Positions 15,506 to 36,573 of a DNA stretch of 64,000 nt are shown piece after piece. Under the pieces are notes generated by a model. It was not told where the DNA came from, did no database searches, and was given only the letters and a program-made list of their open reading frames with translations. Both the position numbers and the translations under genes were made by a program. Each line of letters opens with the position of its first letter. The stretch's first letter is position 1. This DNA comes from an uncultured Verrucomicrobiae bacterium (GTDB taxonomy: Bacteria > Verrucomicrobiota > Verrucomicrobiia > Chthoniobacterales > UBA10450), in the NCBI GenBank assembly GCA_963726745.1, contig CAVSDR010000004.1, positions 1 through 64,000 on the forward strand. Reading direction: 5' to 3'.

Positions 15506-16873
15506 ATGCCAAAACCGACCCCTTCCGGCCAGAGCGGCCTGCTCGTCCTGCTCGGAGTCTTGTTCACCATCATTCTTGCCGGGCTCGATAACACCATCGT
15601 CAGCACGGTCATCCCGGTGGCTTTGCCAGAGCTTGGCGGCGCGCATCTCTACGCGTGGACCTTTGCCGCCTATATGCTCGCCGCGGCGGTCTCGATGCCA
15701 ATCTGGGGACCGGGCTCGGATCGCTGGGGACGCCGGCGCACTTATCTGATCGGGATCGCCGTCTTCACCATCGGGAGCGGGCTCTGCGCGCTTGCGCAAA
15801 CAATGATGCAATTCATCGCGGCGCGCGCGGTCCAGGGGATCGGCGCCGGCGCGGTCGCGACGCTGCCCTTCGTCCTCCTCGGGGTGGTTTATCCGCCGGA
15901 GAAACGCGGCCGCGCGCTTGGCGCTGCCAGCACCGCATGGGCGATCGCGAGTGTCGCCGGCCCGCTGCTGGGCACACTCATCGTGACGCATGTTTCATGG
16001 CGCTGGGCATTCTTGATCAACGTCCCCATCGCCATCGTGGCGGCGTTCCTCGTCATCTCCGGAACGGGCGAAAGCACCGGGCAAAGCAGCGGACGTTTCG
16101 ACCTCGCGGGCGCGCTCCTCGCCGGCGCAGGAGGCAGCGCTTTGATGTGGGCCTTTGTCGATCTCGGTGAAGGGAAAATCGGGTTGCTTCAGGCTGCGCT
16201 CATTGCCACGGGCATCATTCTGCTGGCCGTCTTCGTCTGGCATGAAGGACGCACGGAGCACCCGATCCTGCCGCTTAGTTTCTTCCGTCACGCTGGCTAC
16301 GCCTCCTCGATCTCCTCGTCGTTCCTCGCCTTCTTCAGCGGGTTCGGCCTGAGCTCGTATCTGCCGCTCGCGACTAACACCGCGTTTCATGAGAACCGCG
16401 CGATCGTCGGTCTCGTGGTCGGCGCATTCACCATCGGCTGGAGCACCCTCGCATTCGGCACTGGACGCCTGGTGCATCGCATCGGCGAACGTCTTCCCTG
16501 CGTCGTCGGGATCGTCATCCACATTCTCGGCCTGCTTCTGTTCATGGTGGCCTTCGCCCAAGGCTTGGTCTGGGTGGTGATCGCTGCGCTTGTCTCCGGC
16601 GCCGGCATGGGTTTGCTCTCGCCCGCGCTCACCGTCGTCGTGCAAAACAGCGTGCCCGTTGCCCGCATGGGCAGCGCGACGACTAGTCAGCAATTCATCC
16701 GGCAAGTTGGCGCAGCCCTAGGTGTGAGCTCGTTCGTGTTAGCCGCGACCGCTGGCGGATTTCGCGTCGCTCTGCTGGTGATGATTGCCGTCAGCGCCGG
16801 CGCATTCGCCTGCATCCTGGCCCTGCCCGCGCATAGCTTGCACGAGGCGCACAGCAGAGAAATAGCGCCATGA
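15506..16873 (+). CDS. MFS transporter (DHA2-like efflux)
   Basis: LDNTIVS, SDRWGRRR and WRWAFLINVP motifs; about 14 TM helices. Confidence 0.9.
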   Translation: MPKPTPSGQSGLLVLLGVLFTIILAGLDNTIVSTVIPVALPELGGAHLYAWTFAAYMLAAAVSMPIWGPGSDRWGRRRTYLIGIAVFTIGSGLCALAQTMMQFIAARAVQGIGAGAVATLPFVLLGVVYPPEKRGRALGAASTAWAIASVAGPLLGTLIVTHVSWRWAFLINVPIAIVAAFLVISGTGESTGQSSGRFDLAGALLAGAGGSALMWAFVDLGEGKIGLLQAALIATGIILLAVFVWHEGRTEHPILPLSFFRHAGYASSISSSFLAFFSGFGLSSYLPLATNTAFHENRAIVGLVVGAFTIGWSTLAFGTGRLVHRIGERLPCVVGIVIHILGLLLFMVAFAQGLVWVVIAALVSGAGMGLLSPALTVVVQNSVPVARMGSATTSQQFIRQVGAALGVSSFVLAATAGGFRVALLVMIAVSAGAFACILALPAHSLHEAHSREIAP

Positions 16874-16909
16874 GGCGGTAATCCCGCAACACGCGACCGC
16901 GCCCGTGGA

Positions 16910-17229
16910 TTACGCCGTCGCGAGAAGCGCACGGACCACCTCCGACAACGACTTCCCCGTCACGCACGGTGCGGCCATCGCCGACGAAGGCGTCGGCTAT
17001 TTCCGCGCCAGGTAACCGGTGCGCAGGCCGGCTTGGCTGGCGCCATCGACGTCCCAATCGTGCGCTGCGATCAATGCCAGCTCTCCCGGCGCCAGCTCCA
17101 GCCTCTTCGCTGCGTGCTGGTGAAAACAGATCACAGCGAGCCCGCAGGCAGTCCGAGCGCGCTGAGCTTCTCGTCGATCGGATCAATCGCAAAAAGCGTC
17201 TCGATGACGTCCAAGGCCACAGCCTTCAT
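16910..17229 (-). pseudogene. Haloacid dehalogenase type II pseudogene
   Basis: N-terminal MKAVALDVIETLF is joined out of frame to C-terminal LIAAHDWDVDGASQAGLRTGY, with the middle missing and an in-frame TAG. Confidence 0.65.
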
Positions 17230-17907
17230 TCATCGTTCCGCGGGCGGGCTGGCGGTTCGCTCCGGGTGAAAGAAGGCCGAGAAGGAATCCGCGTCCGTGC
17301 TCGCTGGCGCGCGCGGGATCCGCGCAGTCATGCGTCCCGCAGCGGCGCCCCAACCGCCCACCTTTTGCGCCTGCGCTTCTCGCTCGAGCCGCGCCAGCTT
17401 TTCTTGCTCCCGCTCCGGCGAGGCCAGGCCCACGGGAGCCGCCTGCGCGCCATAGACGCGGGCCAGACCATTGGCCACGAGCAGCTCCGCGAGGTCGCCT
17501 TCGCGCGTTTCCACGAAAGCGAAAAAGCGGGGCAACGCGCTCCGGCCCCGCGCGTCCTGCAGGCAGGTGCGAACGGTGAACGGCGTCGCCAGTTTCTCCG
17601 CGGCGAAGCGCTCCGCGAGCTCGCCCACCTTCAAGGCCTGCGGAACCGTGACGTGAAAATAGGCAGCCTGCTCGCCGACGCGCTCGGGAAAGCTGGCATC
17701 CGTCTCGGGCGCGTCCACCAGGTAAAGCCGAAAGATGTATTCCTTCCCACCGGCGCGGACGTGGAAGCTGTCGCCATCGTTGGCCTTGTTAGGCAAGAGA
17801 CGGCAATCCTTCAAGGTGATCCATGGTCCGTGGGCCCAGGCCGCGCTGGCGGACAGCCAGAGGAAGAAGGACAACCACGCGCGCCGCAAATTTTTCCAGG
17901 ACAACAT
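17230..17907 (-). CDS. Secreted thermonuclease (SNase) family protein
   Basis: Signal peptide with DGDSF, RLYLVDAPE, LLVANGLARV and ...AQAQKVGGW motifs. Confidence 0.85.
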   Translation of the reverse strand: MLSWKNLRRAWLSFFLWLSASAAWAHGPWITLKDCRLLPNKANDGDSFHVRAGGKEYIFRLYLVDAPETDASFPERVGEQAAYFHVTVPQALKVGELAERFAAEKLATPFTVRTCLQDARGRSALPRFFAFVETREGDLAELLVANGLARVYGAQAAPVGLASPEREQEKLARLEREAQAQKVGGWGAAAGRMTARIPRAPASTDADSFSAFFHPERTASPPAER

Positions 17908-17914
17908 CGAAGAT

Positions 17915-19177
17915 TTAGTCAGCCAGTTCTTCTGCGCCGACATTCCAGGATCGCGTTTTGCCATCGGCCAGGTCAAGGGAAACGAGGTGCTCGCCGGTGG
18001 CGGTAACGCCGTTCCTGGTCTGCTGGACCACGCCGTAAAGCAGCAGGTGCTGCGGCGTCTGGTAGCGGTGGCGCAGCTCGTGGAACGGCAGCTTGGCCAT
18101 CCACTGCGGCTGCAAATCATTCGTTAGGCGAGTGAGCGCCAGCCGGCCGTCCTCGTCCAGGCGGGTGCGGTGGAGCACGAGGAAACCGTCGGGATCCTGC
18201 ACGCCCATGACTTGCCTGGTTCCCTGCTGGACCAGCAAGCCAGCCTCAAGAAACTCCGGCGCGCCGGGAATGCGCGCGAGGTCGAAGAGCCGGTCGTGCG
18301 TCCCTTCGGAGAACTCTCGCGTCTTCCCGAGCCGCGCGCTCCAGAAGGTCCGCCGCGCCCGCGAGCTTTCGTAGAAGACGCTGTCAGCCTTTGAGCCCGG
18401 CTCCCCCGTGGCCAGCTTGTCGCCAAACTCGTCGTTCGCCGCATCGGCCGCTTCCTTCTCACTGAAAAGCCCGAGCCAGCGCCCATCGAGCCGCATTTGC
18501 CTAACGAGGAAATCGCGCGTGTGATAGCCCCCGCTCCCTTTGGCCACGGCCTGGAGCTGTCGGAAATAATCGTCGCTCGGCGGCGTGTAGGGCTCGGCTT
18601 TGCCGTCGGCTCCGCCAATCCGGAAACGGCGCGCATCCGCCGCCGTCACCACCAGGCCGCGATCGAAAAGGTAGAAGTCGAGCTTCGACGGAAGCAAGCC
18701 GCGCAGGGCGGGATTCTCTCGCTCGATCGTGGCCCGGTCGGCCAGCTGGCGGCCGTCCGCCGCGGAGAGCGCGACCGGCCCGTCATGCAGGAAAAGCCAG
18801 ACGACGGCGCCCGCCTGTCCGAGAATGCGCGCCTCAGCCACGCGCCCGCCGGCGTCTTCCTTCACCGTGAGCAGACGCTTTTTCCAAAGTCGCGCCGCGC
18901 TCGCTGGATCATGCGCCTGCAGGTCGAAGTGATACGACGTTTCCGTGACCAGCTTCCCGAGCAGCCGCCGGCTGCCGCCGAGACTGCGGGTTCGTTGTTC
19001 CTCTTGCTTCAGGAGCAACCAAAGCCGCGGCTGGCTCTCGTGCTGCACCAGCGCGGGCGGACCTTCGCGCTCCGGCGCACTCACACTGCTCTGGCTGCAC
19101 GCGGCGAGCATGGCTGCCAGCAGGCCACCGATCCAGATGGTGCCGACTTTCCGGGTAACCATCCGCCGAGTCTCCAA
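17915..19177 (-). CDS. Lipoprotein, possibly PA2928-like
   Basis: Lipobox LAAC and FLEAGLL...DGFLVLH motif; the family call is from recollection only. Confidence 0.55.
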   Translation of the reverse strand: METRRMVTRKVGTIWIGGLLAAMLAACSQSSVSAPEREGPPALVQHESQPRLWLLLKQEEQRTRSLGGSRRLLGKLVTETSYHFDLQAHDPASAARLWKKRLLTVKEDAGGRVAEARILGQAGAVVWLFLHDGPVALSAADGRQLADRATIERENPALRGLLPSKLDFYLFDRGLVVTAADARRFRIGGADGKAEPYTPPSDDYFRQLQAVAKGSGGYHTRDFLVRQMRLDGRWLGLFSEKEAADAANDEFGDKLATGEPGSKADSVFYESSRARRTFWSARLGKTREFSEGTHDRLFDLARIPGAPEFLEAGLLVQQGTRQVMGVQDPDGFLVLHRTRLDEDGRLALTRLTNDLQPQWMAKLPFHELRHRYQTPQHLLLYGVVQQTRNGVTATGEHLVSLDLADGKTRSWNVGAEELAD

Positions 19178-19210
19178 TGGGACGGCGACGCGTCAATCCG
19201 AAAGGACTCG

Positions 19211-20110
19211 CTACACCACCGCGGTTTCCGTTTCCTCGATCACTTCCGGCTTTCGCGGTTTCCCGAAAAGGACCGCGAGAAGCACGCCGGCGACGACGAA
19301 CCCCAGGCCCAGCACGGTCTGCGCGGTGTAGCGTTCGCCGAAAAGGAGCACGCCGAAGAGGAGCGCGTAGACCAGACCGAGGTAGTTCAAGGCTGCGACC
19401 GTGGCCACGCGCTCGGCCTGGAGAGCTCTCGTTAGGCAAACCTGCCCGATCTGCGTCAGCCCACCGCAAAGGAGGAGGCAGAGCCATTCCCACGGCACCG
19501 GCGTGCGCCAGTGGAAGAGCGTGAAGACGAGCCCGGCCCCGATGCCGACAAGCTGGAAGTGGAGCACGACCACGATCGTCTCCTCGCGCTCGCGCAGGCG
19601 GCGCACGAGATTGTAGGCCATGCCGGAGCAGAGCGCGGAGACGATGCCGAGGAAGAGGTAAAAGCCCGAGACGCGCGCGTCGAAGCCCTTGAGCACGAAG
19701 ACGCCGGCAAAGGAGAGCGCGTAGAAGAGCCACTGCCGCTTCGGCACCGCCTCGTGCAGCACAAAGACGCCGATGAGCGCAGTGAAGACGGGCGAGAGAT
19801 ATTGGATCGTGACCGCGGTCGCGAGGTGCATGTGCTGCAGGGTGATGAAGAAGGTGAAGAGCGCGAGCGTGCCGAAGCTGCCGCGGGCGAGCAGGAGCGC
19901 GTGGTTGTTCCCCTTCCAATCAAGCCGGCGGCGCGCGATCTCGACTGCGCAGATCAACCCGGAGATGAGGCAGCGGAAGAAGACGATCTCCATCGCCGGG
20001 ATGCGGTCGAGTTGCTTCACCAAGACGTTCATGACCGCGAAGGCCAGCGTCGCCAGGAGCATGTTGGCGACAGCGGGCGAGAGGCGGCGCGGAGCGGTCG
20101 AGGCAGACAT
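19211..20110 (-). CDS. DMT/EamA family transporter
   Basis: 10 TM helices in two EamA-like halves. Confidence 0.9.
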   Translation of the reverse strand: MSASTAPRRLSPAVANMLLATLAFAVMNVLVKQLDRIPAMEIVFFRCLISGLICAVEIARRRLDWKGNNHALLLARGSFGTLALFTFFITLQHMHLATAVTIQYLSPVFTALIGVFVLHEAVPKRQWLFYALSFAGVFVLKGFDARVSGFYLFLGIVSALCSGMAYNLVRRLREREETIVVVLHFQLVGIGAGLVFTLFHWRTPVPWEWLCLLLCGGLTQIGQVCLTRALQAERVATVAALNYLGLVYALLFGVLLFGERYTAQTVLGLGFVVAGVLLAVLFGKPRKPEVIEETETAVV

Positions 20111-20193
20111 GCCCGTAGCTCATACGCGGGCCGGTTCCGCGGACAAGAGGGATGGACAAATGCGCCGCCCGCGCCGAATTAGCCGGCACTTTC

Positions 20194-21295
20194 ATGAGCG
20201 AGACCGAGGAAATTACCGCGCGGGAGCGCTTCGAATGTCCCTCTTGCGGCGGCGCGGCCGAGTGGTCCGCGGCCCGGCAGGCGCTGGTCTGCCCCTTCTG
20301 CGGCACGGTCTCGCCGATGCAACCGCCGACCGATGGCTCGAGCGTGCGCGAGTACGATCTCGCGGAAGCGCTGCGCAACATCCCGCAGAGCGAGCGGGGC
20401 TGGGACACGGCCACGCGCTCGGTAAAGTGCCAGAGCTGCCAGGCGATCTCGGTCTTCAAGCCGGAACGCGTGGCGCAGAACTGCGACTTCTGCGGCTCCC
20501 CCGCGCTCGTGCCTTACGATGAAATCAAGGCGCCGATCCGGCCGGAAAGCGTGCTGCCGTTTCAGCTCGCCGAGAGCGCCGTGCGCGACCGCGTGCATGC
20601 GTGGTATCGCAGCCGTTGGTTCGCGCCTAACGAGTTCAAGCGCCGCGCCTTTACCGATACGCTCCACGGCGTCTACTTGCCCTACTGGACCTTCGACGCG
20701 CAGGTCGCAGCCGAGTGGACCGCGGAAGCGGGCTACCACTACTACACCACCGAGAGCTACACCGACTCGAACGGCCGCGAGCAAACCCGCCAGGTCCAGC
20801 AGACCCGCTGGGAATATGCCAGCGGCGCGCTCGCACATTTTTTTGACGACGAATTGGTCGCGGCTTCGCGCGGCGTGCCGGAGAACTTGTTAGGCAAGAT
20901 CGAGCCCTTCCCCACAAAGGAACTCGCGCCCTACGACGCGGGCTACGTCTCCGGCTGGGTGGTCGAGCAATATCAAATCGACCTCGTGGCCGCGGCCGCG
21001 AAATCGCGCGAGACGATGGACGCCAAGCTCCGCCGCATGTGCGCCGAGCAAATTCCCGGCGACACCTACCGCAATCTCGCGGTGCAGGCCGATTACAGCG
21101 CGCAGACCTTCAAGCACATCCTCGTGCCGGTCTGGCTGCTGAACTTATCAATACGGCGCGCGCACTTTCCGGATCATCGCCAATGGTGTCACCGGTGAGA
21201 TTGCCGGCAAATATCCCAAAAGCTGGCTCAAGATCGCGCTCCTGGTGCTCGCGATTCTCTCGGTGCTCCTGATCGTCGCTGCGACCCAGAGCTAG
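20194..21295 (+). CDS. Double zinc-ribbon membrane-anchored protein (frameshift near 21150)
   Basis: CPSCGG, CPFCG, CQSC and CDFCG motifs plus YLPYWTFD. The alternative frame continues NGVTGEIAGKYPKSWLKI and a TM helix to TAG at 21295. Confidence 0.75.
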
Positions 21296-21316
21296 CGCTC
21301 GTTAGGCAGCGCGCAC

Positions 21317-22448
21317 CTACTTCAACTCGGTCGCTGCGGCCGGGACGACCAGGCTTTCGCCCTGGAAGGAAATCATCACCTCGGAGCCCGTGCGCGCGAC
21401 CACCCTCACCTGCGCGCCTTCCGGGATGGCGACAAATTTGCCAGCAACTTCCACTGAGAGCGGCCGGGTAATGCGCGTGCTCCAAACCGGCTCGACGCGC
21501 GGCGTGGGCGAAGGGGACCCGCTCGAGAAAGCGAGCCGATCCCGATTCGCTTCGAGCACATGGAAGAAGGCCAGCAGCGCCATCATGCTGCCGCCCATCC
21601 AGAGCGCAAGCGTCAGCCTTTCGCGCCGATAGCTGCGCCGCGGCGAATGCGCGATGGAATTTCCGGACCCTCGGTGCCGCTTGCGTTTCCGGAGTCAGCG
21701 CGCCAATCGCGGCGATGATCTCGCCGGCAAATTCCGGCTCCGCCAGGTGCGCCCAGCGCTCTTCCTCGAGGTGGTAACCGAAGCGCTCGTAGCTCTCACC
21801 CGCCGGCGCGAAAACATCGGCCCATCCGTTCGGCTTCGCGCTGGAATACAGGATTTCGATCCCGCCCACCGTGAGCAACCCCCAGCGAGTGCGCGGAGAT
21901 GGCGGCCAGGCTTGATCGATGAAGGCCTCCAGCCAGCTCCCGTCGCGCTCGCGAGCCACCTGCGCGAGAGCCTCGAGAATGTGCCGGCAACAGCGGCTGA
22001 GATGACCGACTGGCAAACGCGCCCGGCGTTCGCGCCATTCCGAGCAGGTGCACTCCGGGCCGCGCAGGTCGACCGTATGGGAAAGGCCCAGGCGCCCGCG
22101 CGATGCGATGCGGAATTGCGCCTTGACCGACGGCAGGCGCGCCTGGCTTTGGCTGGCCGGCAACAGCACCGGCGCGGCCCGCGTGTCCTGCGGCGCGCGG
22201 GAAGCGTCGCGCTGCAGACGGACGAGTAGTTGCTCGAGCCGGCGGAGCTCCCTTTGATCAACCGCACCTTCGGCCCAAATCTTCTCTAGCGGCTCGAGCA
22301 ATTGCGCCGCCGGCCAACTCCCCGCGGTTTCCGGGTGTTCATTGAGCCACGCCGCAATCCCGGCAGCTTCCTCCGCCGAAACCTCGCCATCCTCCAGGAT
22401 GGCGGCGCAGAGTTGCAGGAGATCGCGGGTTTCCTCGTCGTCCGGCAC
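21317..22448 (-). CDS. Multidomain protein with SWIM-like zinc finger, TM helix and C-terminal SH3-like segment (frameshift near 21630)
   Basis: CTC...CCRH motif; ORF 21317-21598 supplies a TM helix and a beta-rich tail. Confidence 0.55.
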
Positions 22449-22476
22449 GGCGCTCGATCAACTGCTCGTTAGGGCT

Positions 22477-23682
22477 TTACTGGCCCGGAGGCCGCCCGCC
22501 ACCGCCGCCACGTCCACCGCGCCCGCCGCGAATTTGATCCGCGGGCAAGCCCGCGCTTTGCAGGAGGGCCGCGCCGTTCTGCGGATCGCGCCACATGACC
22601 ACGCCGCTGATCCGCTGCAGGGTGCGCTGGCGGGTTTGATCGTCGGTGATCGTGCCGACCCAACCGACCGCGGTCTGCGGATCGGCAAAAGCGAGCGACT
22701 GCGCCAGCCCGGCGACGGCGTTGTCGCGCGAGGGGCCGGGCTCGAGCGCGTAGATCCAATTGGCCGCGCCCTGCGGATCGTCGCGCGACCATTGCCGCAT
22801 CACCTGGTCGAGCGAACGCCGCTGCGCTTCCGCGTCCTTCATCGCAATGGAAAAATTTGCCGCCGCCACCGGATCCTGCGCCGCCCAGGTATCGACCACG
22901 CTGCGCACGGGCGAGCGCCAGCCGTCGCCCTCAGCGGGCGTTTGCGCGGCCGCGTGATTTGCCGCCGCCTGCGGATCGACCGCGGCCCATTGCCGGTAGA
23001 CCACGCTGGCGAGCGATTCCATCCCGCGGAAATCGCCCATGGTGCTGGCTAATTCCAAGGCGGCGCGCGGATCGCTATCGGCCTTGAAACTGAGGATGCC
23101 CTTGAGCGCGCGATAGCGCAGGTCGTTTCCCGGGATCGCGCTCGCCCGCCCCATCGCGGCGCTGAAGTCCGCCGCGGCGAAGGCTTGGAAAACATCCTCG
23201 GCCACATATTCGAAGCCGCGATTGCCGGCGGCGAATTGTAGCGCGCCATCGGGATCGCTTTGCACCCAGCGGGCAACCAGGAGGCGTGAGGCGAGCTCGC
23301 GCTCGTTGCTATGCGGGATTTGGCGCAGGCGCTTGAGCGCGTCGGCAAACCCGGAGACCGGCAGGTGATTGATGAAGTCCTGGAGTGAAAGAAGCCGCTG
23401 CCGCGGATCGTGCTCCGCGAGGACGGAATCCAGCCCGGCGCCCGACTCGCCCGCCGCAGTGCGCACGTCCGTCGCCGTCGCCGGGGCGGTCTTCTCAACA
23501 CCACCGCTTCCGCTGGCCGCAGCGGCCGCTTCTTGCGCGCCGCCTCGGGTCGCCGCGATCGCGCTGGCGCGACGAGTTTCCGGGACACCGCTGCCGGCCA
23601 GCAGCAACCGATCGACCAGGACGCCCACGATCATGGCCCCGACAATGAGGGCCACCTGGAGAAACGCGGGAGGTCGGTTCAT
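22477..23682 (-). CDS. Membrane-anchored helical-repeat protein
   Basis: Repeated W-x-x-x-DP-x-x-A units and an N-terminal TM helix. Confidence 0.75.
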   Translation of the reverse strand: MNRPPAFLQVALIVGAMIVGVLVDRLLLAGSGVPETRRASAIAATRGGAQEAAAAASGSGGVEKTAPATATDVRTAAGESGAGLDSVLAEHDPRQRLLSLQDFINHLPVSGFADALKRLRQIPHSNERELASRLLVARWVQSDPDGALQFAAGNRGFEYVAEDVFQAFAAADFSAAMGRASAIPGNDLRYRALKGILSFKADSDPRAALELASTMGDFRGMESLASVVYRQWAAVDPQAAANHAAAQTPAEGDGWRSPVRSVVDTWAAQDPVAAANFSIAMKDAEAQRRSLDQVMRQWSRDDPQGAANWIYALEPGPSRDNAVAGLAQSLAFADPQTAVGWVGTITDDQTRQRTLQRISGVVMWRDPQNGAALLQSAGLPADQIRGGRGGRGGGGGRPPGQ

Positions 23683-23726
23683 GCGCAGGGCGAGTCTAGC
23701 GCAGGCAATTGCGGATTAGCCAGCGC

Positions 23727-24443
23727 CTAGGTGGCCGCTTTTTGCGCGACGTACACCGTGCTGCGGGAAGTGCAGTCGAGCACCGGATTTGGGAAGGCGA
23801 CCACCTCCGCACGCACCTCGGGAAAGACCTCGCAAAGCAGCGCGAGGAACTCCTCGTCCGGCGCCTCGTCCGACCAGAGCGCAAAGACCCCCGCCGGATG
23901 CAGCTGCGCTGCCAGCGCCTGCAGGCCGGTGACGGTGTAAAAGCTCGCGTTCCCCGGCGCGAGGAGATCGCGCGGCGAATGATCGATGTCGAGCAGGACG
24001 GCGTGAAATTGCCGTCCCTCCGCGAACCCCCTCGCGGACTGCGCCAGCGCAAAGAAGTCCGCCTCGAGAAATTTTACCCGCGCATCACTCGTTAGCCGAG
24101 GACCCAGCGGGACCAGCCCGCGGCGATGCCAGGAGATCACCTGCGCGAGCGCATCGATCACCAGGAGCGAGCGCACTTCCGGATGCTCCAGCGCGGCGCA
24201 GGCGGTGTAGCCCAGCCCGAGACCGCCCACGACCACATCCCATTCGCTCCCGGGCAGGTCCCCCAGCCCACGGTGCGCCAGCGCTTCCTCCACCACATGG
24301 AAGAGGCTCGACATCAGGAAAGCCTCGCCCAGCTTCACCTCGAAAATCTCGAGGTTGTCCAGCGAACGAATCCGCCGCCGGCGCAGGAACAGATCGCCCA
24401 ATGGCGTCTGGGCAAAATCCAGTTCCTCAAAGTCGCGGCTCAT
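23727..24443 (-). CDS. Spermidine synthase-like SAM-dependent protein
   Basis: VVVGGLGLGYT and LLDIDHSP motifs. Confidence 0.85.
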   Translation of the reverse strand: MSRDFEELDFAQTPLGDLFLRRRRIRSLDNLEIFEVKLGEAFLMSSLFHVVEEALAHRGLGDLPGSEWDVVVGGLGLGYTACAALEHPEVRSLLVIDALAQVISWHRRGLVPLGPRLTSDARVKFLEADFFALAQSARGFAEGRQFHAVLLDIDHSPRDLLAPGNASFYTVTGLQALAAQLHPAGVFALWSDEAPDEEFLALLCEVFPEVRAEVVAFPNPVLDCTSRSTVYVAQKAAT

Positions 24444-24531
24444 AAGCCTGCGGTGTCCCCACCGGCAGGGGGCCAACGTTGTTCACCTGGACGGGGCACG
24501 CAACCGCCAGCCCGTCTCCAGACACACCTCT

Positions 24532-24654
24532 GCCTAACGAAACAAAAGATCAGCGGCCGCTGACGAGGGCGCGCGTCGCGCGGGGTGAAAGTGTGGAAGT
24601 TACTTCACGAGTGGGCACAGAGCGGCCGCCAGTCGCTCCCTTGGTTGGTTGAAG
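24532..24654 (-). mobile_element. attC-like site 1 (123 bp)
   Basis: The minus strand runs CTTCAAC...GCTGATCTTTTGTTTCGTTAGGC, an imperfect palindrome with an intact GTTRRRY, directly downstream of a small ORF. Confidence 0.7.
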
Positions 24655-24677
24655 CGTCGCGGCGGTCGTCCCTGGAT

Positions 24678-24917
24678 TCATTCCTTATGGCTTGGCTGCG
24701 GCGTGGGACGACGCCAACGCCACAGTGAGACCATGGCAAACAAGCAGACTGCCCCGGCCATACCGTAACCGAGCTGCCAAGGCAGCCGTTTTGTAGGCTC
24801 CGCATACTCAGAGGATGCAAGCAAACCAAAGACACAAAACGCGAAAATGGCGAGAAGACAGAGCGTGAGAACTGCGCGGGCAATGAGATTCATGTCTCGG
24901 CCATTCCTGGTCTTCAT
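24678..24917 (-). CDS. Small two-TM protein, gene-cassette ORF
   Basis: 79 aa hydrophobic ORF between attC-like sites 2 and 1; lower GC than the flanking genes. Confidence 0.65.
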   Translation of the reverse strand: MKTRNGRDMNLIARAVLTLCLLAIFAFCVFGLLASSEYAEPTKRLPWQLGYGMAGAVCLFAMVSLWRWRRPTPQPSHKE

Positions 24918-24952
24918 CTCAGGGTCGGCGTTTACCAGTGGCGCCGGGCTCC

Positions 24953-25016
24953 GCCTAACGAGCTCAAACAGTGGACCGCAGGGCGCTCCGCCGTTCGCTC
25001 CGCCGCAGATTTAGAC
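24953..25016 (-). mobile_element. attC-like site 2 (internally deleted, 64 bp)
   Basis: The minus strand runs GTCTAAA...GGAGCGAACGGC...CTCGTTAGGC and aligns with one half of sites 1 and 3. Confidence 0.6.
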
Positions 25017-25299
25017 GGCTGAGCTTCCATGCGAAAAGTAGACCGAGCAAACCGCCAAGGAGAAATCCGCCACCAAGGCCAAGAAACGCGGCAAGCGAGG
25101 TCAAGCGAGACGGACCGAGAAGTCGCTCAGTGACAAGCCCGCCGCCCCAGAAGCAACAGAACGCGAGAAAAGCTGAACCGAACAACGGAAAGCAAACAAA
25201 CGAAGCGAGGAACCGGACGCGTTTGAAGGGCAGCAGGCAAAGGCCAAAGAAAACGCCCGCCAGCGCGATCATGAAGAGAAGCCCGATCAAAGGAAACAT
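24964..25299 (-). CDS. Small three-TM protein, gene-cassette ORF
   Basis: 111 aa hydrophobic ORF starting about 15 bp after attC-like site 3 and reading into site 2. Confidence 0.65.
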   Translation of the reverse strand: MFPLIGLLFMIALAGVFFGLCLLPFKRVRFLASFVCFPLFGSAFLAFCCFWGGGLVTERLLGPSRLTSLAAFLGLGGGFLLGGLLGLLFAWKLSRLNLRRSERRSALRSTV

Positions 25300-25314
25300 C
25301 GGCGTACGCTGTCC

Positions 25315-25438
25315 GTCTAAGGAGCCACAAGATCAGCGAAGGCCAAGAGGCCCATCGCTCGGAGTAATGGCGTGGAAGTCATCTCAAAAAGAGAACGCGC
25401 GTTGGTATCCGTCGTTTCGGTGCATCGCCTGGTTAGGA
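25315..25438 (-). mobile_element. attC-like site 3 (124 bp)
   Basis: The minus strand runs TCCTAACCAGGCGATGCA...GCTGATCTTGTGGCTCCTTAGAC. It shares AAGATCAGCG and GTGGAAGT (plus strand) with site 1; R' is mutated (CTTAGAC). Confidence 0.7.
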
Positions 25439-25515
25439 CTTGGGCTCATCGAGGGAGGCAGCGCAGTATGGACATAACTGAAGGTCGTCGCAGATGCGCA
25501 ACGGCGAGCCACCGG
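25433..25515 (-). pseudogene. 3' remnant of a cassette gene
   Basis: ...DDLQLCPYCAASLDEPKS* with its TAA inside the R'' box (TCCTAAC) of attC-like site 3; no start codon. Confidence 0.5.
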
Positions 25516-25530
25516 GACGACGCTCGCGCG

Positions 25531-27226
<1,696 letters not shown>

Positions 27227-27334
27227 CGCTCCACTAGACCACGGGAGCAGCCCAGCGTCGCGCGCGGATAATCTTTCGAGCGGGCGTGCCCGCTGTGCCG
27301 AAAACTGGCCAGACGGGCGGGACGCTCGCCTTCG

Positions 27335-28411
27335 TCAGCGCGAAACGTGACGTGCGGCCGGGTATTTGCCGGCAACCTGCCGGCGAGTTGCCGGACTGGG
27401 TGTCCAGGAGGCGATCGTGCGCGTGAGCAACTCGAGCCGCTGGCTGCGCGCAGCGAAATCGCTTTTCAACTGCCAGCCGACGCGCGCGCGCAGGTCGTCG
27501 CTTGGGCCCTGGCGCGCGAAGTTCCAGGCATCCTCGCCCTCAGCCTCCTCGACGCTTTTCTCCAGCGCCCAGACCGCGCGCTCAAGCTCCGCGAGGAGCG
27601 CGCGCATCTGGCCCACGCTGGTCTGCGCGCTCACCTGGTCGGACTCGAGATCGCTCAAGGCCAGGAGCAATTCCATCCGCGCGACATCGGCCGCAAGATA
27701 GGCTTCCTGGACCTCGTGCCAGAGAGAAGAGACAGCGACTTCACCATCGGCGCGGAGATCGGGATGCAGCCGGCGCACAAGCAGGCGGTAGAGTTCTTTG
27801 ACCCGCTGGTCGACCAGTTCTTCGACCGGTTCTTCTTCCGGCAGTTCGGGCGGGCGCTCCACCCGACGGGCCGAAGGCGGTGGTGCCGGTGGGCGCGCCT
27901 GGAACATGTGCGTCTTGAAGGTGGCAAAGCTGGCCTCGTAAGCGTCGTCGTCCATTTTGTCGGGATTCGTGCCTAACGAGCGCTGGACCCATTCCTGGAA
28001 AAGCGCCTCCTGCTCGAATTCGCTCAAGCGCCGGCCTTCCCCGCCATCGGCTGGAGCCGCGGCTGCGGCTGTTTCCGGGGGCGTCTCGCCGGGATGCGCG
28101 CGGCGGAAGAGCACCCGTTGGTAGGCCGAGGCGGCATCCTGGAAGAAGCGGCGCATCTCCATCTCCACTTCGTGGATCAAGGCCTGCGCCTCGGCGATCT
28201 GCACTTCCACTTCGCGAGCGCGGCTGAGCAGTGGACCGAATTCCCGCGCCCGCCAGCGGGCAAAGGCCGGCTTGTCCTCGTGCTCGAAGCGATGCCACGC
28301 GGCCCGGGCTTCCTCCAAGCGCCGGCGCGCCGCGGTGCACTCCGCGGCGGCGGAGGCGCGCAACGGCGCTTGGTCGATCACAGCCAGCAAAAGCATCGGG
28401 CAATAAAGCAC
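27335..28411 (-). CDS. Coiled-coil protein with an internal J-domain
   Basis: VKELYRLLVRRLHPD...WHEVQEAY. Confidence 0.75.
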   Translation of the reverse strand: MLYCPMLLLAVIDQAPLRASAAAECTAARRRLEEARAAWHRFEHEDKPAFARWRAREFGPLLSRAREVEVQIAEAQALIHEVEMEMRRFFQDAASAYQRVLFRRAHPGETPPETAAAAAPADGGEGRRLSEFEQEALFQEWVQRSLGTNPDKMDDDAYEASFATFKTHMFQARPPAPPPSARRVERPPELPEEEPVEELVDQRVKELYRLLVRRLHPDLRADGEVAVSSLWHEVQEAYLAADVARMELLLALSDLESDQVSAQTSVGQMRALLAELERAVWALEKSVEEAEGEDAWNFARQGPSDDLRARVGWQLKSDFAARSQRLELLTRTIASWTPSPATRRQVAGKYPAARHVSR

Positions 28412-28438
28412 GGCTGCCTCCCGAGGTGGAGGCGGCAG

Positions 28439-28936
28439 CTACGGCGTGAGAAAGATTTTCCCGGTGAACGGGTCTTTCACCTCGGTGCCACCGGGAAAAT
28501 TGCGCACGTCCACCAGGCCCTGCTTGGGCGCGTAGGGACTGGTGACAAAGCCCGGGCGGTTCGGCACGGGAATGCCGTAAGGCAAATCCCGGCGCAGCCC
28601 GGGCGTGGCCGCGACATGCGAAGCCTGCCGCACCATCGGCGGCTCCGGCGTGGGACTGGGCGTCGGCAACGCCGGGCGCGTCTCCCCGGGCGAAGCAGCC
28701 GGCGAGGGTGCGGGCGACTCGTTAGGCTCGGCCGCGTCGGTCCCGGCCTTCTTCTTCGCCGGCCGCGGCGGTGTGGGCGTGGGCCGCGATTTCTTGCGCG
28801 CTCCCGGATGCGCGATGGAGTTGCCGACCGCGCGGAAAAATTCCTTTAAGCTGCGCGCTTCCGCCGCCACCGGGCCGGCCCACCCAACGAGAAAGAGGGC
28901 GACAAGGAGCAGGCGAGAGATGCGGGCGGCGCGCAT
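28439..28936 (-). CDS. Secreted proline-rich hypothetical protein
   Basis: Signal peptide, PTP-rich linker and compact C-terminal domain (PYGIPVPNRPGFVTSPY...KDPFTGKIFLTP). Confidence 0.8.
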   Translation of the reverse strand: MRAARISRLLLVALFLVGWAGPVAAEARSLKEFFRAVGNSIAHPGARKKSRPTPTPPRPAKKKAGTDAAEPNESPAPSPAASPGETRPALPTPSPTPEPPMVRQASHVAATPGLRRDLPYGIPVPNRPGFVTSPYAPKQGLVDVRNFPGGTEVKDPFTGKIFLTP

Positions 28937-28960
28937 GATCGGGAAAGGGAAGACGCGCGC

Positions 28961-29467
28961 TTAGGAGGCGCGTTTCCGATTGCGAGTGGCGGAGGCGGTT
29001 TTCCGCTTGGTCCCGGCCGGCTTTTTCGCCGTGGCCGGGCGCTTCTTCGCCGGCTTCCGCGCGACCAGGGCATCGAGGATCGGGTCCGGCGGCGTCTCAA
29101 ACTGAGCGAGCCGATCGATCGCCGCGAGCAATGCCTCCGGCGTGGTCCCTTTGACCACGTGCTCCTCAAACCCGGCCTCGCGGCTGCGCTCGACGTGCTC
29201 GGGATCGTCGAAGGCGGAAAAGGCGATGCCGCGCACCTTGCGGTTCTTTTCCTGGAGCGCCTCCATCAATTGCCAGCCCGTGCCATCAGGCAAATTCAGG
29301 TCGCATACGAGCACGTCAAAGCGTGCCTTCCCGGCGATCTTCAAGGCGGAGTCGAGATCGCTTGCGATGTCCACCTGGTAGCCGGAAAGCTCCAGGAACA
29401 TCTTCAGGCCACGCGCGGTCGCCGGATGATCTTCCACCACGAAAACACGAAATTCCCGACGGCTCAT
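28961..29467 (-). CDS. Single-domain response regulator with basic tail
   Basis: VVEDH, CDLNLPDGTG and HVVKG motifs. Confidence 0.85.
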   Translation of the reverse strand: MSRREFRVFVVEDHPATARGLKMFLELSGYQVDIASDLDSALKIAGKARFDVLVCDLNLPDGTGWQLMEALQEKNRKVRGIAFSAFDDPEHVERSREAGFEEHVVKGTTPEALLAAIDRLAQFETPPDPILDALVARKPAKKRPATAKKPAGTKRKTASATRNRKRAS

Positions 29468-29626
29468 AAATTCCCCTGCGCCCTCCTGGCGCTCCAATGT
29501 GTTGGTTGCTTGCTCATGGCCCCGTAACAGCTTTCCGCTTGCAGTCTGCTAGCTCACGCGAGACCGCGGGAAGATGCAAACGAATTGCAGCGTCGAGCGC
29601 ATTTTCTCGCGAAAAATCGCCGCGAC

Positions 29627-31189
29627 TTATGGGAGCAACTCGACTTTGTAGAATTTTTGAGAGCCGTCCGCAGCCGACGAGTCGACGAAGCTCTGGGTCG
29701 TTTCGCCGGCCCCGGCGGTGAGCGCTCCGCTCAAGGGCGCGAAGGGCGTCCGCAGGTCGTCCGTGGCCAGCACGCGATAACTCAGGCCGGGCACTGCGCT
29801 CCACTGCAGCTCGATCGCGTTCCCGCCGCTCCGCACGATCGCGAGGATGCGCGGTCCGGCAGCCGCGGCGGCGCCCCCCTCGACCGCGCGGGCCACGTTT
29901 AAGCGCCCGCCGGCGACGACCAACCCCGCCCACTGCGGCAGGAGATCGACCGTGTTCAGCAGCAGCGCCTTGATGTTGCCGGCTGAGAGTGCCGGGTAAA
30001 ATTGCGAGAGCAATGCGCCCGCGCCGGCAACGTGCGGCGTGGCCATGCTCGTGCCGGAGAGCGTGACGTAGCCGCCGATGTTATTGCCGCTCAAAATTTC
30101 ATCGCCCGGTGCGGCCAGGTCCACCGTGGTCGGTCCGTAGTTGCTGTAGTTGCTGCGCGCGTCGGCCCGGTCCGACGCCGCCACTGCGATGATCGCGGGC
30201 GATGGAAAGCTGGCCGGATCGAAGGGCGCGCTGTCGAGGTTGCGCCCGCCCTGGTTTCCGGCGGCACAGACGTTCAAAATGCCGGCTGCGCCTAACGAGT
30301 TGAAGGCCGCTTCCAGGATCACCGGGTATTCGTCGCCGGGATCGCGCACCCCGCCCCAGCTGTTGTTCGTTAGGCGCAGGTTCACCCCGCGCTGCTTCAG
30401 CGCCAGGAGGTAATCGAGGCACTCCACCGCCTCGGCGTCGGTGCCGTTGCCGGATGCGTCGAGGAATTTGCAGACAACCAGCTTTGCTTTCCAATGCACT
30501 CCCACCACGCCCAGTCCGTTGTTCCCGACAGCCGCGAGTGTCCCGGCGGTGTGGGTGCCGTGGTGATGGTCGTCCAGCGGCGCACCCGTGTGATGGACCA
30601 CATCGATCCCGTGCACGTCGTCGATGTAACCGTTGCCGTCATCGTCGAGGCCGTTATCCGGAATCTCGCCCGGGTTCACCCAGATGTTGGCGGCGAGATC
30701 GGGGTGGTTGTAGTCCACCCCGGTGTCGACCGCGCCCACGACCACGTCGTCATTTCCCGGCGCGAGCAAGCGCTGCCAGGCCGGCTCCACCTGGATGCGC
30801 TCCATCCCCCAGAGCGTCCCGTCGAGCCAGTACGGGTCGTTAGGCGGCGCGCCCCCGGCGATGTGCCGCAGGTAATTGGGCTGCACCAGGAGGACGGCGG
30901 CGTTCGCCCGGAGCGCCTGCGAAGCCGCTGGCAAATCCTTGCTCGCAGCCACGCGTACGTGCTCCACCCCGAGGTGCGGAAAACGCCGGATAAGGCTCAA
31001 CCCGCAAGCCGCGCGCACGTGGCGGCGCTCCGTTGCGGAAGCTTCCTCGCGGAATTGCACCAGCAACTCGCCCGGGACCGCGCCGTGATTGGCCCACTGC
31101 GCCTCCGCCGGCCGGGCGAAAAACCAAGCGAGCAACAGGAGCACCAGGCGGCCCCGAACCGGAAGCGGAAGGTGCACGGAGCGAAGCAT
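29627..31189 (-). CDS. S8 family subtilisin-like serine protease
   Basis: Catalytic triad motifs DTG, HGTH and GTSMA; C-terminal QKFYKVELLP. Confidence 0.92.
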   Translation of the reverse strand: MLRSVHLPLPVRGRLVLLLLAWFFARPAEAQWANHGAVPGELLVQFREEASATERRHVRAACGLSLIRRFPHLGVEHVRVAASKDLPAASQALRANAAVLLVQPNYLRHIAGGAPPNDPYWLDGTLWGMERIQVEPAWQRLLAPGNDDVVVGAVDTGVDYNHPDLAANIWVNPGEIPDNGLDDDGNGYIDDVHGIDVVHHTGAPLDDHHHGTHTAGTLAAVGNNGLGVVGVHWKAKLVVCKFLDASGNGTDAEAVECLDYLLALKQRGVNLRLTNNSWGGVRDPGDEYPVILEAAFNSLGAAGILNVCAAGNQGGRNLDSAPFDPASFPSPAIIAVAASDRADARSNYSNYGPTTVDLAAPGDEILSGNNIGGYVTLSGTSMATPHVAGAGALLSQFYPALSAGNIKALLLNTVDLLPQWAGLVVAGGRLNVARAVEGGAAAAAGPRILAIVRSGGNAIELQWSAVPGLSYRVLATDDLRTPFAPLSGALTAGAGETTQSFVDSSAADGSQKFYKVELLP

Positions 31190-31239
31190 ACCGCACCGAC
31201 CAAGTTGCTGGCTAACCTTTCCCCAGGAGGCGGCGCGTC

Positions 31240-31935
31240 TCACAGAAAGCGATCGATCGAGCCTGGCGCGAGCTCCAGCGGCGGCAGTTTCCGCCGGAAA
31301 AGTCGCGCGCCCGCGGCGCCCTTGAGCGCGCATTTCCCCTGCTCCAGCCGCAGCCAGGCGCCTTCGCGCAAGCCGATCACGGGCGTCTCGTTTTCCTCGA
31401 GGAATTGCAGGATGCGCTCCTCGCGGGTTTCGCCCATGTGCCGCGAATGCGGGTCCGGATCGAGGTAATGCGGGTTGATCTGAAAGGGCACCAGCCCGAG
31501 CGCCTCGAACGAGGGCGGCTCCACGATCGGCATGTCGTTTGTCGTGCGGATGGTCGGCCCCGCGACGTTCGAGCCCGCGCTCGAGCCCATGTAGGGCAGG
31601 CCCGCGGCCACGCGTTCGCGGATCACGCCTAACAAGTTCCGGTCGTAGAGCGCGCGCAGCAGGCGGAAGGTGTTCCCGCCGCCGATGAAGAGCGCCTCCG
31701 CTTCGCGCACCGCTTCCACCGGGTCGCTCGCCGCGTGCAGTGACTCGACCGGCAGGCCGAGCGGCTCGAAGAACTGGCGGACGCGGCCGGAATAGGCGGC
31801 GTGATCATGCAACGCAAAAGGGACAAAGAGGAGCCGCCGGGCCGCGCCAAAAAACTCCCGCACTTCCTCCTGCGCGTAATCCAGATACTGGCCGCCAAAA
31901 ACCGTCGAGGTGCTGAGAAGCAAAATCCGGCTCAT
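31240..31935 (-). CDS. pepE: Dipeptidase E
   Basis: GGGNTFRL, GSSAG, FQINPHY and HMGETRE motifs. Confidence 0.92.
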   Translation of the reverse strand: MSRILLLSTSTVFGGQYLDYAQEEVREFFGAARRLLFVPFALHDHAAYSGRVRQFFEPLGLPVESLHAASDPVEAVREAEALFIGGGNTFRLLRALYDRNLLGVIRERVAAGLPYMGSSAGSNVAGPTIRTTNDMPIVEPPSFEALGLVPFQINPHYLDPDPHSRHMGETREERILQFLEENETPVIGLREGAWLRLEQGKCALKGAAGARLFRRKLPPLELAPGSIDRFL

Positions 31936-33077
31936 GCCGCGGAGAGATTGCCACGAAAACGCCGCAGCGAAAGGAAGTCGATCGCGTGCGGCGTGCCGCC
32001 CTCGAGCGCGAGCTGCGCCGCGATCTCGCCGATGACCGAGGCAAACTTGAAGCCGTGCCCGGAGAAGCCGCCGCAAAGAATCACATCCGGATGTTCCGGG
32101 TGGCGATCGACCACGAAATGCTCGTCGTCGGTTAACGAGTACATGCAAACCTTGGCCGCGAGCAGGCGTCCGGCCGCGCCCGGCATCCAGCTTTCCATCG
32201 CGGCGACCAGCGGCGCGATGTCGCGCGCCTCGTCGATCTCGCGGTCGAGCTCCGGCGCGGAAGTGACCGTGCCGGCGCCGTGGAAGGCGGCCTTCACCCC
32301 TTCGCCGAAATCGGGGAAGCCGTAGAGCGGCGCCGGGAAGTGGTCGCGCGTGACCAGGAACGAAGGAAAACCGGGAGCCGCGTAGCCTCCCTGCGTCGGC
32401 TGGAACCACGCCTGCACCATGCGTTCCACCCGCAGCCGCACGCCGAGCGCGGCCAGCGTCTCGCGCACCCACGGCCCGAGCGCGAGCACCAGCCGGCGCG
32501 CCGTGACCGTCTCGCCGTTAGCCAGCGAGATGGCGAAACCGACGCCGCGCGCTTCCCAGCGAGTGAGCGCGGTTGCAAAACGCAACTCCGCGCCCGCGCG
32601 TCGCGCGACCCCGAGCTGCGCCGCGATCGCCCGCTCCGGTTGCAAGACGCCGCCATCCGTCTCCCAAAGCGCGACCTCTCCCGGCGCCAAGCGCAGGGTG
32701 GGAAAGCGCTTCCGCAATTCCTCCCGGCCTAACGAGTCCACCGCCAGGCCGTGCTCCTGCGCTGCCCGCAGGGTGCCGCGAATGATCTCGCTCCCTTCCG
32801 CGCCGATCGTGAGCAGCCCGGTGAGCCGGAGCAATTCCTCGCCACTCGCGTGCTCGAGCTCGCGCCAGAGCTCGTAGGCTCGCAAGACCAGCGGCACGTA
32901 GGCGGCATCTTCGAAATACGCTTTCCGGATCATCCGGCTGCGTCCGCTGGAGGAGCCGAGCTCGTGACCTTCGGCGAATTGCTCCAGGCCGAGGACGCGC
33001 GCGCCCCGCCGGGCACACTGCGCGGCAATGGCACTCCCCATTCCGCCCAATCCGATCACGGCCACGTCAAATTCCAT
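31932..33077 (-). CDS. solA: N-methyl-L-tryptophan oxidase / monomeric sarcosine oxidase
   Basis: GLGGMGS, CMYS, D.HFVVD and GFSGHGFKF motifs. Confidence 0.88.
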   Translation of the reverse strand: MEFDVAVIGLGGMGSAIAAQCARRGARVLGLEQFAEGHELGSSSGRSRMIRKAYFEDAAYVPLVLRAYELWRELEHASGEELLRLTGLLTIGAEGSEIIRGTLRAAQEHGLAVDSLGREELRKRFPTLRLAPGEVALWETDGGVLQPERAIAAQLGVARRAGAELRFATALTRWEARGVGFAISLANGETVTARRLVLALGPWVRETLAALGVRLRVERMVQAWFQPTQGGYAAPGFPSFLVTRDHFPAPLYGFPDFGEGVKAAFHGAGTVTSAPELDREIDEARDIAPLVAAMESWMPGAAGRLLAAKVCMYSLTDDEHFVVDRHPEHPDVILCGGFSGHGFKFASVIGEIAAQLALEGGTPHAIDFLSLRRFRGNLSAA

Positions 33078-33131
33078 CGCTTGCAGAACATGACGCTTTC
33101 CGCAGAAAGACAAATTGGGCAAGCTCCCGCC

Positions 33132-33939
33132 GTGCAATCGCCTCCCGCACCCTGGCTCGTCTTCATCGGCCGCATCGGCTTTCTCGCGCAAGGCCTGGTC
33201 TACGTTTGCATGGGACTCTTCTCGGCCACGGCCGCGCTCGAAGGGGCCAGCCGCGCGACCGGCTCGCGCGATCTCCTGCAAACGATCGTGCGCCAGCCGT
33301 TCGGTCGCGTTCTCCTGCTTGTGCTCATCGGCGGGCTCTGCTGCTACGTCGTCTGGCGGGTTTTAGCCGCGCTCCTGGATGTCGCGAACGACGGCCGCGA
33401 TGCCAAGGGCCTGGCTCTGCGCGCGCGCTCCTTTGTTGTCGCGCTGATCTATGCCGGCCTCGCTTTTGCCGGCATTAAGACGCTCGTCGGCACGGGCGGG
33501 AAATCCGGCGGCGGCGACCAGGCGGCGCGCGACGTGGACCGCGACCGCGCTGGCCTCTCCGTTTGGGAAAACGCTGGTTGTTCTCATCGGCGCGGGCGTG
33601 GCCGTGGCTGGGATCGGGCAAGGTTATCGCGCTTTCCGGCAAAAATTTGCGGAGCAACTCGACCTCGGCGAGCTCGACAAGACCGCGCGCACCTGGGTGC
33701 TGCGGGTTTGTTCCTTCGGGCTGGCCGCGCGCGGCCTGGTCTTCCTGCTCGCTGGCGGATTTCTCGTGGCCGCCGGCTTGCATTCGAATCCCTCGAAAGC
33801 GCGTGGCCTGCCCGGCGCCTTGAGTTCGCTGCACGCGCAGCCGTTGGGCCGCTGGCTCTTCGCCTTCACCGCGGTGGGCCTGGCGGCATACGGCGTGTTT
33901 GCCTGCGTGAAAGCGCGCTACGGGAAAATCGCGCAATGA
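33132..33939 (+). CDS. DUF1206 membrane protein (frameshift near 33540)
   Basis: Repeated RIG..A.GLVY / QPFGR.LL units split over two frames. Confidence 0.8.
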
Positions 33940-34601
33940 CCGCGCCGGCGCGCTTCCTCGACCTGAGCCACACGGTCGAACACGGGATGGTGACCTACCA
34001 AGGTCTGCCCGCGCCGGTGATTTGCGATTGGCTTAGCCGCGAAGCTTCGCGCAGCCGCTACGCGCCCGGGACCGAGTTCCAGATTGGCAAGATCGAGATG
34101 GTGGCGAACACCGGCACTTACATCGATAGCCCATTCCATCGTTATGCCGATGGGATCGATCTCGCGGAGCTGCCGCTCGAGTCGCTGGCTAATTTGCCCT
34201 GCCTGGTCGTGCGCGCGACGGAGCGCGAAAGCCGCGCGGTGAAAATGCTGCCTAACGAGTTGGATTGCCGCGGCGCTGCGGTCCTCTTCCACACCGGCTG
34301 GGCCAAACACTGGCGCACCGAGCGCTACTTCGCGGGGCATCCGCATTTGACCGCGGAATTAGCCGACGATCTGGTCGCGCGCGGCGCGGCGCTCGTGGGG
34401 ATCGATTCCTTTAACATCGACTCGACCGACGACGGCACGCGCCCGGTCCACTCCATCCTGCTCGCGGCCGGCATCCCGATCGTGGAGCACCTCCGCGGCC
34501 TGGAGCAACTACCCGATGCGGGCGCGCGGTTCTACGCGGTGCCGGTGAAGGTCAAAGGCATGGGCACTTTCCCGGTGCGCGCCTTTGCCCGGCTCGCTTG
34601 A
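33936..34601 (+). CDS. Cyclase family (kynurenine formamidase-like) protein
   Basis: DLSH, NTGTYIDSPFH, VGID and PIVEHL motifs. Confidence 0.9.
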   Translation: MTAPARFLDLSHTVEHGMVTYQGLPAPVICDWLSREASRSRYAPGTEFQIGKIEMVANTGTYIDSPFHRYADGIDLAELPLESLANLPCLVVRATERESRAVKMLPNELDCRGAAVLFHTGWAKHWRTERYFAGHPHLTAELADDLVARGAALVGIDSFNIDSTDDGTRPVHSILLAAGIPIVEHLRGLEQLPDAGARFYAVPVKVKGMGTFPVRAFARLA

Positions 34602-34603
34602 AA

Positions 34604-34635
34604 GAAAGGCGCGGGAGCGAACCCCCGCGCCTTTC
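34604..34635. terminator. Hairpin between convergent genes
   Basis: GAAAGGCGCGGG-N8-CCCGCGCCTTTC. Confidence 0.7.
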
Positions 34636-34658
34636 CGCTGCAACCAACAACTTGTTGG

Positions 34659-36560: not shown

Positions 36561-36573
36561 CGAACGCCGCCGC

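Follow-up and report, generated by a model that had tools for sequence, protein, structure and literature searches.

The last bases of a gene-cassette site in this DNA are the same as a word that is scattered over the whole chromosome, which raises the question whether the two are connected and, if they are, which was modelled on which. The stretch analysed, referred to as the window, is the 64-kb beginning of contig C4 of a genome of 3.4 Mb with 64% GC. A sequence-only reading had noted that two attC-like sites end in a window-wide 10-mer, and had offered three options: that cassettes carry a host signal, that the dispersed copies act as secondary integrase targets, or that the process generating the motif had converted the attC ends. 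The features concerned are the following.

2536..63734, both strands: dispersed word TCGTTAGGC, present as 26 exact 9-mers, 20 exact 10-mers and 42 copies within one mismatch
23727..24476, minus strand: flanking spermidine-synthase-like gene (Pfam Spermine_synth under cut-off); one near copy of the dispersed word inside it, 24088-24097
24532..24654, minus strand: attC site 1, last in the cluster, R'' and L'' decayed (family attC profile, 59.2 bits, E 1e-15; alignment)
24541-24532, minus strand: right end of attC site 1, TTCG/TTAGGC; minus strand 24532-24541 reads TTCGTTAGGC
24678..24893, minus strand: hydrophobic cassette ORF of 71 aa, no Pfam family above cut-off
24953..25016, minus strand: attC site 2 (family attC profile, 14.5 bits, left half alone; alignment)
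24953-24962, minus strand: right end of attC site 2, CTCG/TTAGGC, intact; reads CTCGTTAGGC
24964..25299, minus strand: hydrophobic cassette ORF of 111 aa that runs into attC site 2, no Pfam match
25315..25438, minus strand: attC site 3, which heads the cluster (family attC profile, 49.6 bits, E 1e-12)
25531..27117, minus strand: flanking DeaD-type DEAD-box helicase gene (Pfam DEAD, Helicase_C, DbpA); one near copy of the dispersed word inside it, 25945-25954

The cluster thus consists of three minus-strand attC sites and two short hydrophobic ORFs, with the helicase gene on one side and the spermidine-synthase-like gene on the other. The sequence-only reading had recognized two of these sites and had missed the third, at 25315-25438. 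Its statement that sites 1 and 2 end in the motif was confirmed by reading TTCG/TTAGGC and CTCG/TTAGGC directly on the minus strand. The window sites could be aligned with attC sites that adjoin an intact intI in relatives (six alignment rows). With R' taken as GTTRRRY and R'' as RYYYAAC, the alignment revealed at sites 1 and 2 an intact R' but a damaged R''; L''/L' boxes were found at sites 1 and 3, and L' was gone from site 2. The latter site had lost about 60 nt including its L' box, which explains why it scored only 14.5 bits over its left half, and its R'' had changed from AAC to AAA; it is likely to be non-functional. At site 3 the right end was damaged (CTCCTTAGAC, in which the G of R' is replaced by C), the upstream cassette and its junction were lost, and about 90 nt separated the site from the helicase stop codon. 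Predicted folding of sites 1 to 3 was no better than that of shuffles (z 0.45, 1.31 and -0.71), and Rfam gave zero matches for the cluster region. All three window attC sites are decayed.

An intact intI was not found in the source genome (95% complete), which carried a single intI fragment on contig C2 and four attC clusters in addition to that of the window, one with about 17 sites. Records with the same attC type were mostly labelled Chthoniobacterales or Verrucomicrobiota. In the available text of PMC4889954 a CALIN is defined as an attC cluster without an integron integrase. By its co-oriented attC sites (two or more), its intervening ORFs and the lack of a neighbouring intI, the window cluster is a decayed CALIN of the ordinary kind. 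It differs from this class in the company it keeps: 29 of 43 clusters examined in its family, a family of the Chthoniobacterales denoted f1, still open with an attI-like site, and f1 clusters look like integrons that lost intI.

The dispersed word was characterized in the source genome. In the window the 20 exact 10-mers and 42 near copies compare with a shuffle mean of 3.8, and genome-wide the 10-mer CTCGTTAGGC occurred 820 times exactly against 24 expected, which made it the top-ranked 10-mer. The identity of the attC end with the 10-mer noted earlier therefore stands; the true unit, however, is the 9-mer TCGTTAGGC, of which the genome holds 1,312 copies, since the base before it is loose (C 820, G 237, T 226, A 29) and in the genome G110 nearly free. 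It had also been stated that many variants satisfy the integrase core GTTRRRY. This applies to 1,451 of the 2,025 TCGTTAG copies, but among the 713 non-consensus variants only 139 fit and 574 break the core, and the variants show no bias toward it.

According to our own gene calls, 638 of the 820 exact copies lay within genes, 82 across stop codons and 100 in intergenic DNA, and the genic copies occupied every stop-free frame. Comparisons with orthologues (43 sites covered) were gapless in 130 of 146 cases, and in 19 of these 130 the core was kept. Inside genes the word thus appears to arise by point substitution. That the dispersed copies are remnants of attC sites was ruled out by the absence of an upstream attC or attI signature and of gaps in the orthologues. 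The density of the word climbed with GC (rho 0.53), low-GC stretches being poor in copies, and short spacings between copies were depleted. Chi and KOPS have a polarity relative to replication; unlike these, the word was without strand polarity (1,018 versus 964 copies, 51% on the G-rich strand). The word is also a source of rare codons, as 449 of the 2,926 TTA codons lie in TCG TTA GGC, and many stop codons are situated inside copies. Separately, 12-mers built from GCCAAC-type hexamers were strongly over-represented (about 145 each), which is probably due to one tandem repeat.

Enrichment of the word was restricted to f1. It was counted 138-2,435 times in 36 of 36 f1 genomes and 13-4,336 times in a second set of 120 f1 genomes that overlapped the first; these tallies take in the unpublished genomes G001, G008, G030, G035, G068 and G075, and the ranges are independent of them. 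Twenty-four genomes from 15 other families of the order had 1-35 copies, the family f5 had 6-35 in the seven of seven genomes counted, and across the phylum 159 non-f1 genomes had 0-12. A record labelled Ca. Udaeobacter contained 286 copies, and f1 is probably the family that holds this genus. In a quick tree of the single gene RpoC, two rows of which were less than half filled, f1 formed one clade (SH-aLRT 99) to which f5 was not the sister; motif-rich genomes flanked both sides of the first split within f1, and motif-poor genomes were nested. One of the latter, G085, had 13 copies (0 in a 100-kb sample), and its attC and attI still ended in CTC/GTTAG.

The ends of attC sites were then compared between families with and without the dispersed word. 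Sites were found by their left arm; those for which a right end could not be detected, 34 of 197 arms, were omitted. The ending TC/GTTAG was present in 23/24 sites of f5, 9/12 of f6, 65/67 of motif-rich f1 and 57/60 of motif-poor f1. The full 9-mer ended 27 of 36 non-f1 sites, which come from three genomes and are not independent within one array, versus 37 of 127 f1 sites. The comparison of R' sequences that the sequence-only reading had proposed thus showed the motif-free families to carry the 9-mer end more often. As the f5 and f6 arrays were first located through clusters of the 9-mer, whole-genome lists of left arms, matched by hand, were used as a check, and here attC sites ended in the 9-mer in 14/19 (G040) and 18/26 (G054) cases. 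Many of the few word copies in motif-free genomes were located at attC sites. Records labelled Chthoniobacter, Chthoniobacteraceae and Prosthecobacter, found via a TCGTTAG-containing pattern, had the same attC end and 4-24 copies of the word. A phylum-wide search with an attC pattern gave mostly single matches, candidate attC sites at best.

These counts bear on the option that the motif-generating process converted the attC ends, which is the least credible of the readings weighed here. Ends with the 9-mer were indeed slightly more frequent in motif-rich than in motif-poor f1 genomes (24/67 versus 13/60, p 0.12), and the spacer end CTC of attI was found in f1 only. Nevertheless, the match was better in the motif-free families, f5 ending in the exact 10-mer at 13/24 sites without having the dispersed word, against 33/127 in f1; and decayed attC sites, with 9-mer ends in 21/55 versus 18/59 cases (p 0.43), did not carry them preferentially. 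The commonest f1 attC end, moreover, was GTTAGAT (51/127), and this sequence followed TC just seven times in the whole source genome. Therefore, neither a conversion of attC ends nor an adaptation of cassettes to the word fits the data. The option that cassettes carry the host signal fails likewise in that cassettes are not adapted to the word, although, should the word be an uptake tag patterned on cassettes, these might be preferred as substrates.

A related possibility is that the word arose in f1, shaped the ends of f1 cassettes, and that these cassettes then spread to other families. Cassettes do cross families, as a few attC sites of the f1-type length of 123-124 nt were present in f5 arrays. 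However, f5 and f6 have attC bodies of their own (103, 93 and 154 nt types) that carry the identical end, non-f1 sites fit the word better than f1 sites do, and f5 is not the sister of f1; an export of this kind is very improbable. By parsimony on the RpoC tree, together with the shared end, the word is placed on the stem of f1 and the attC end earlier. This suggests that the attC end is likely to be older than the word, and that the word was modelled on the end, the direction being from integron to genome.

The remaining option of the sequence-only reading was that the copies are secondary integrase targets. In the available text of bioRxiv 10.1101/2022.09.11.507474, integrases insert cassettes at genomic GWT, and the consensus given for such insertion is GWT only. 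The copies resemble the attG sites described there in being chromosomal, double-stranded DNA with the crossover triplet GWT: a GTT is present in each copy, and 72% fit GTTRRRY. They differ from attG as described there, which is not an over-represented word, and cassette insertion was not found at copies here. Cluster starts were surveyed in 40 regions around clusters in seven f1 genomes and in the five clusters of the source genome; two were unscorable. Among the 43 examined, 29 started at a site judged by eye to be attI-like, 14 had no recognizable junction, and none clearly began at a plain copy of the motif. Three of the 43 had a word copy upstream, with no tie to the first cassette made, and a split host gene was not seen among the regions inspected, a set that leaves aside the attI-headed L268-L270. 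Orthologous empty sites for the window cluster were not found among 29 loci of the downstream gene in relatives; five of these had a DEAD-box match, and in the four inspected the best match was another paralogue.

Nor do the copies themselves look like integrase products. Of the 1,312 copies, 16 were preceded by the L-box TAA and 46 by the att-type spacer TTCTC, the variants of the word were unlike the attC pool, and to the 190,625 GWT sites of the source genome the copies add only about 1%. An intI was present in 17 of the 36 genomes of f1 and in 12 of the 24 from other families, and motif density was unrelated to its presence (158 per Mb with versus 147 without, p 0.64; 158 versus 132 with the unpublished genomes removed). 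Finally, the word is missing from f5, although this family possesses intI and an identical attC end. That the copies serve as integrase targets, or were written by integrase activity, is hardly credible. Taken together, taxa free of the motif share the attC end, and in the 43 clusters examined insertions showed no clear association with motif copies, which contradicts the link in the form first proposed.

The survey gave some further observations on arrays. Several attI-headed arrays were present in each of several f1 genomes (L250-L289; in the source genome C3:632370, C4:149615 and C6:745290), and 25 of the 29 had no intI match in the fetched flank, which suggests repeated loss of intI. One type of attI lay just downstream of a co-oriented intI (L017, L019, L020), the others upstream of a divergent one. 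The same two flanking genes surrounded clusters in G033 and G028 (L253, L260), and by this synteny some array sites appear to be conserved across species.

The attI sites proved to have the same end. In f1, attI ended in CTC/GT in 36 of 42 cases by hand tally, comprising at least three sequence types, with intI of both orientations and including the motif-free G085; in two other families of the order the CTC end was seen in 0 of 4. In f1, therefore, attC and attI agree in their ends with each other and with the word. Restricted to attI, the proposal of conversion retains some ground that it lost for attC, given that the spacer end is f1-only. The attI spacer TTCTC is, however, nearer to the attC spacer than to the ACTC preferred by the word, and it is equally plausible that attI was homogenized from attC or that the word overwrote it.

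Is the match between the attC end and the word more than chance? Of 131,072 9-mers, 77 were present in at least 25% of the family attC sites, and TCGTTAGGC was among the three most conserved 9-mers of 60 non-f1 attC sites; membership of both sets depended in part on this end, and the test was applied post hoc. On this basis, we put the probability per word of landing on a 9-mer conserved in attC at about 1e-4 to 1e-3, which makes an accidental match unlikely. Furthermore, the word lies exactly across the crossover and matches the cut end and not the R'' end, which is one base off (1,312 versus 23 copies). We consider a causal link between the attC end and the word to be fairly probable.

That alternative is a coincidence, in which an uptake-like drive in f1 fixed a word that happens to equal an attC end shaped by integron biology alone. 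GTTRRRY is the general integron core, and the attC bottom strand in mobile integrons is enriched in purines according to the available text of PMC5027507, from which a pyrimidine-rich spacer on the top strand would follow. The independence of word density from intI agrees with a coincidence as well, and so does the existence of two other dispersed f1 words without a match in attC. The first, motif B (approximately AWWTAGCCRGCRMNWTS), had 489 strict matches in the source genome against 0-14 in 60 relatives, with an estimated 1,400-2,600 sites, 82% of them in genes and without strand bias; it was abundant only here among the genomes searched, and 15 copies lie in the window (for instance at 11025, 23039, 34358 and 45385). 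Its likeness to an upstream box of attI was noted by eye only. The second, AAGATCGAC(A), was found in the motif-poor f1 genome G095 (L409-L413) at 36 per 100 kb versus 0-3 in other samples. Comparison with the family attC sites gave no close match to either. As f1 makes words unrelated to attC too, the drive can act without the integron model, and there are more draws from which a coincidence could result. Against this stand the exact position of the word on the cut end, the low chance per word, and the fact that f1 attI sites of several types have the same end. A coincidence is on balance somewhat unlikely, and has to be taken seriously.

A search of the literature, mostly outside subscription papers and with supplements excluded, gave no description of the word or of a link between an integron and a dispersed word; for the word itself only primers were found among the matches listed. 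The earlier remark that a link between an integron core site and a chromosome-wide motif is not described agrees with this search.

A host DNA-binding or repair factor that has no part in uptake may have recognized the att crossover end and may have been co-opted chromosome-wide in f1, its sites being kept by selection or biased repair. The even spacing and the constraint at the DNA level would suit a nucleoid or repair factor too, and attI and attC have a common end in f1. There is also a precedent in HIP1-type words, which according to the available text of PMC6604393 are found inside a functional repeat, CRISPR, as well. The word is like HIP1 of cyanobacteria in being hyper-abundant in coding DNA; it is unlike HIP1, which is palindromic and tied to methyltransferases, in that TCGTTAGGC is asymmetric. 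However, the only tyrosine recombinases in the source genome were two XerC/D-like proteins, and a core kept in just 19 of 130 orthologous comparisons suits a drive better than fixed sites. A domesticated or stand-alone IntI N-terminal domain was not found in the source genome with the queries used, nor was a dif site resembling the word. Such a factor is quite unlikely.

Our tentative preference, put at a little below an even chance, is that uptake specificity was tuned to the cassette junction and that the word then spread by biased uptake. The attC crossover end TCG/TTAGGC, common to Chthoniobacterales families without the dispersed word, would be the older element. On the f1 stem a sequence-specific step of DNA uptake would have adjusted its preference to the cassette junction; ordinary genes would then have acquired the word through biased uptake with recombination. 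This could have come about by selection for importing cassette DNA, or by a self-recognizing receptor that locked onto a word already repeated by cassette arrays, which would make it one of the most repeated rare words open to such a receptor. We infer all three elements of this proposal, namely the order of events (by parsimony), the causal nature of the match, and uptake bias with recombination as the force.

The word behaves like an uptake sequence (USS or DUS), and by this analogy its role in uptake is putative. Like the USS of Pasteurellaceae and the DUS of Neisseriaceae, as far as these are described in the available text of PMC3458573, it is non-palindromic, has nine bases and occurs about once per 2.6 kb here; it is limited to one family, is found in genes in all open frames, has a strong inner core with looser flanks and no strand polarity, and is accompanied by competence genes. 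In the same text the genomic USS consensus of H. influenzae matches the uptake bias. Unlike USS and DUS, the word equals an integron crossover end. Neisseria-type DUS form inverted pairs in terminators; unlike these, 1,663 copies of the word formed just three such pairs within 40 bp. In Vibrio, transformation supplies cassettes to chromosomal integrons (PMC12614218, available text), which would give a receptor reason to favour cassette junctions. A point against the uptake interpretation is that GTTAGAT, frequent as a cassette end in f1, is almost absent from the genomic word.

Competence genes present in the source genome encode ComEC, DprA, a ComM-like ATPase, pilus ATPases and prepilins. 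ComEC was found in 114 of 120 f1 genomes, motif-poor ones included, and thus does not explain the 300-fold range in density. The only match to a ComP-like receptor in the source genome was below the Pfam threshold: one of about 11 prepilin-like proteins (G000:C3:432329-432952, L393) scored 20.4 bits with ComP_DUS against a cut-off of 27.3. ComEA-like matches were ruled out as a family-specific factor, because they were secreted nuclease-HhH proteins that are present order-wide. A gene for a secreted SNase-like nuclease is situated in the window at 17230-18120 on the minus strand; its homologues throughout the order have a C-terminal ComEA-like HhH domain that is apparently missing here.

What is new in these results is the direction of the resemblance, the junction survey and the attI result. 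In its widest form, the proposal of tuned uptake would be that f1, a large family of soil Verrucomicrobiota, made the cassette junction into a DNA-uptake tag: its uptake machinery would have come to prefer TCG/TTAGGC, borne by every ancestral-type cassette, and through biased uptake the word would then have been carried across the chromosome and into attI. As a whole this is unlikely, and we put it forward as a conjecture. To our knowledge, known uptake sequences have no traceable source, and for that reason their origin is unsettled. If the tag reading is true, f1 would join two other families known for uptake sequences, and would be the first to reveal where they came from. The candidate word here equals a conserved site that has a function of its own and is likely to be the older of the two, and motif-free and motif-rich relatives allow comparison. 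Should the match be accidental, what is left is a commonplace decayed CALIN alongside a putative uptake-like tag. If the link is causal, the traffic of gene cassettes would have shaped the specificity of DNA uptake in abundant soil bacteria.
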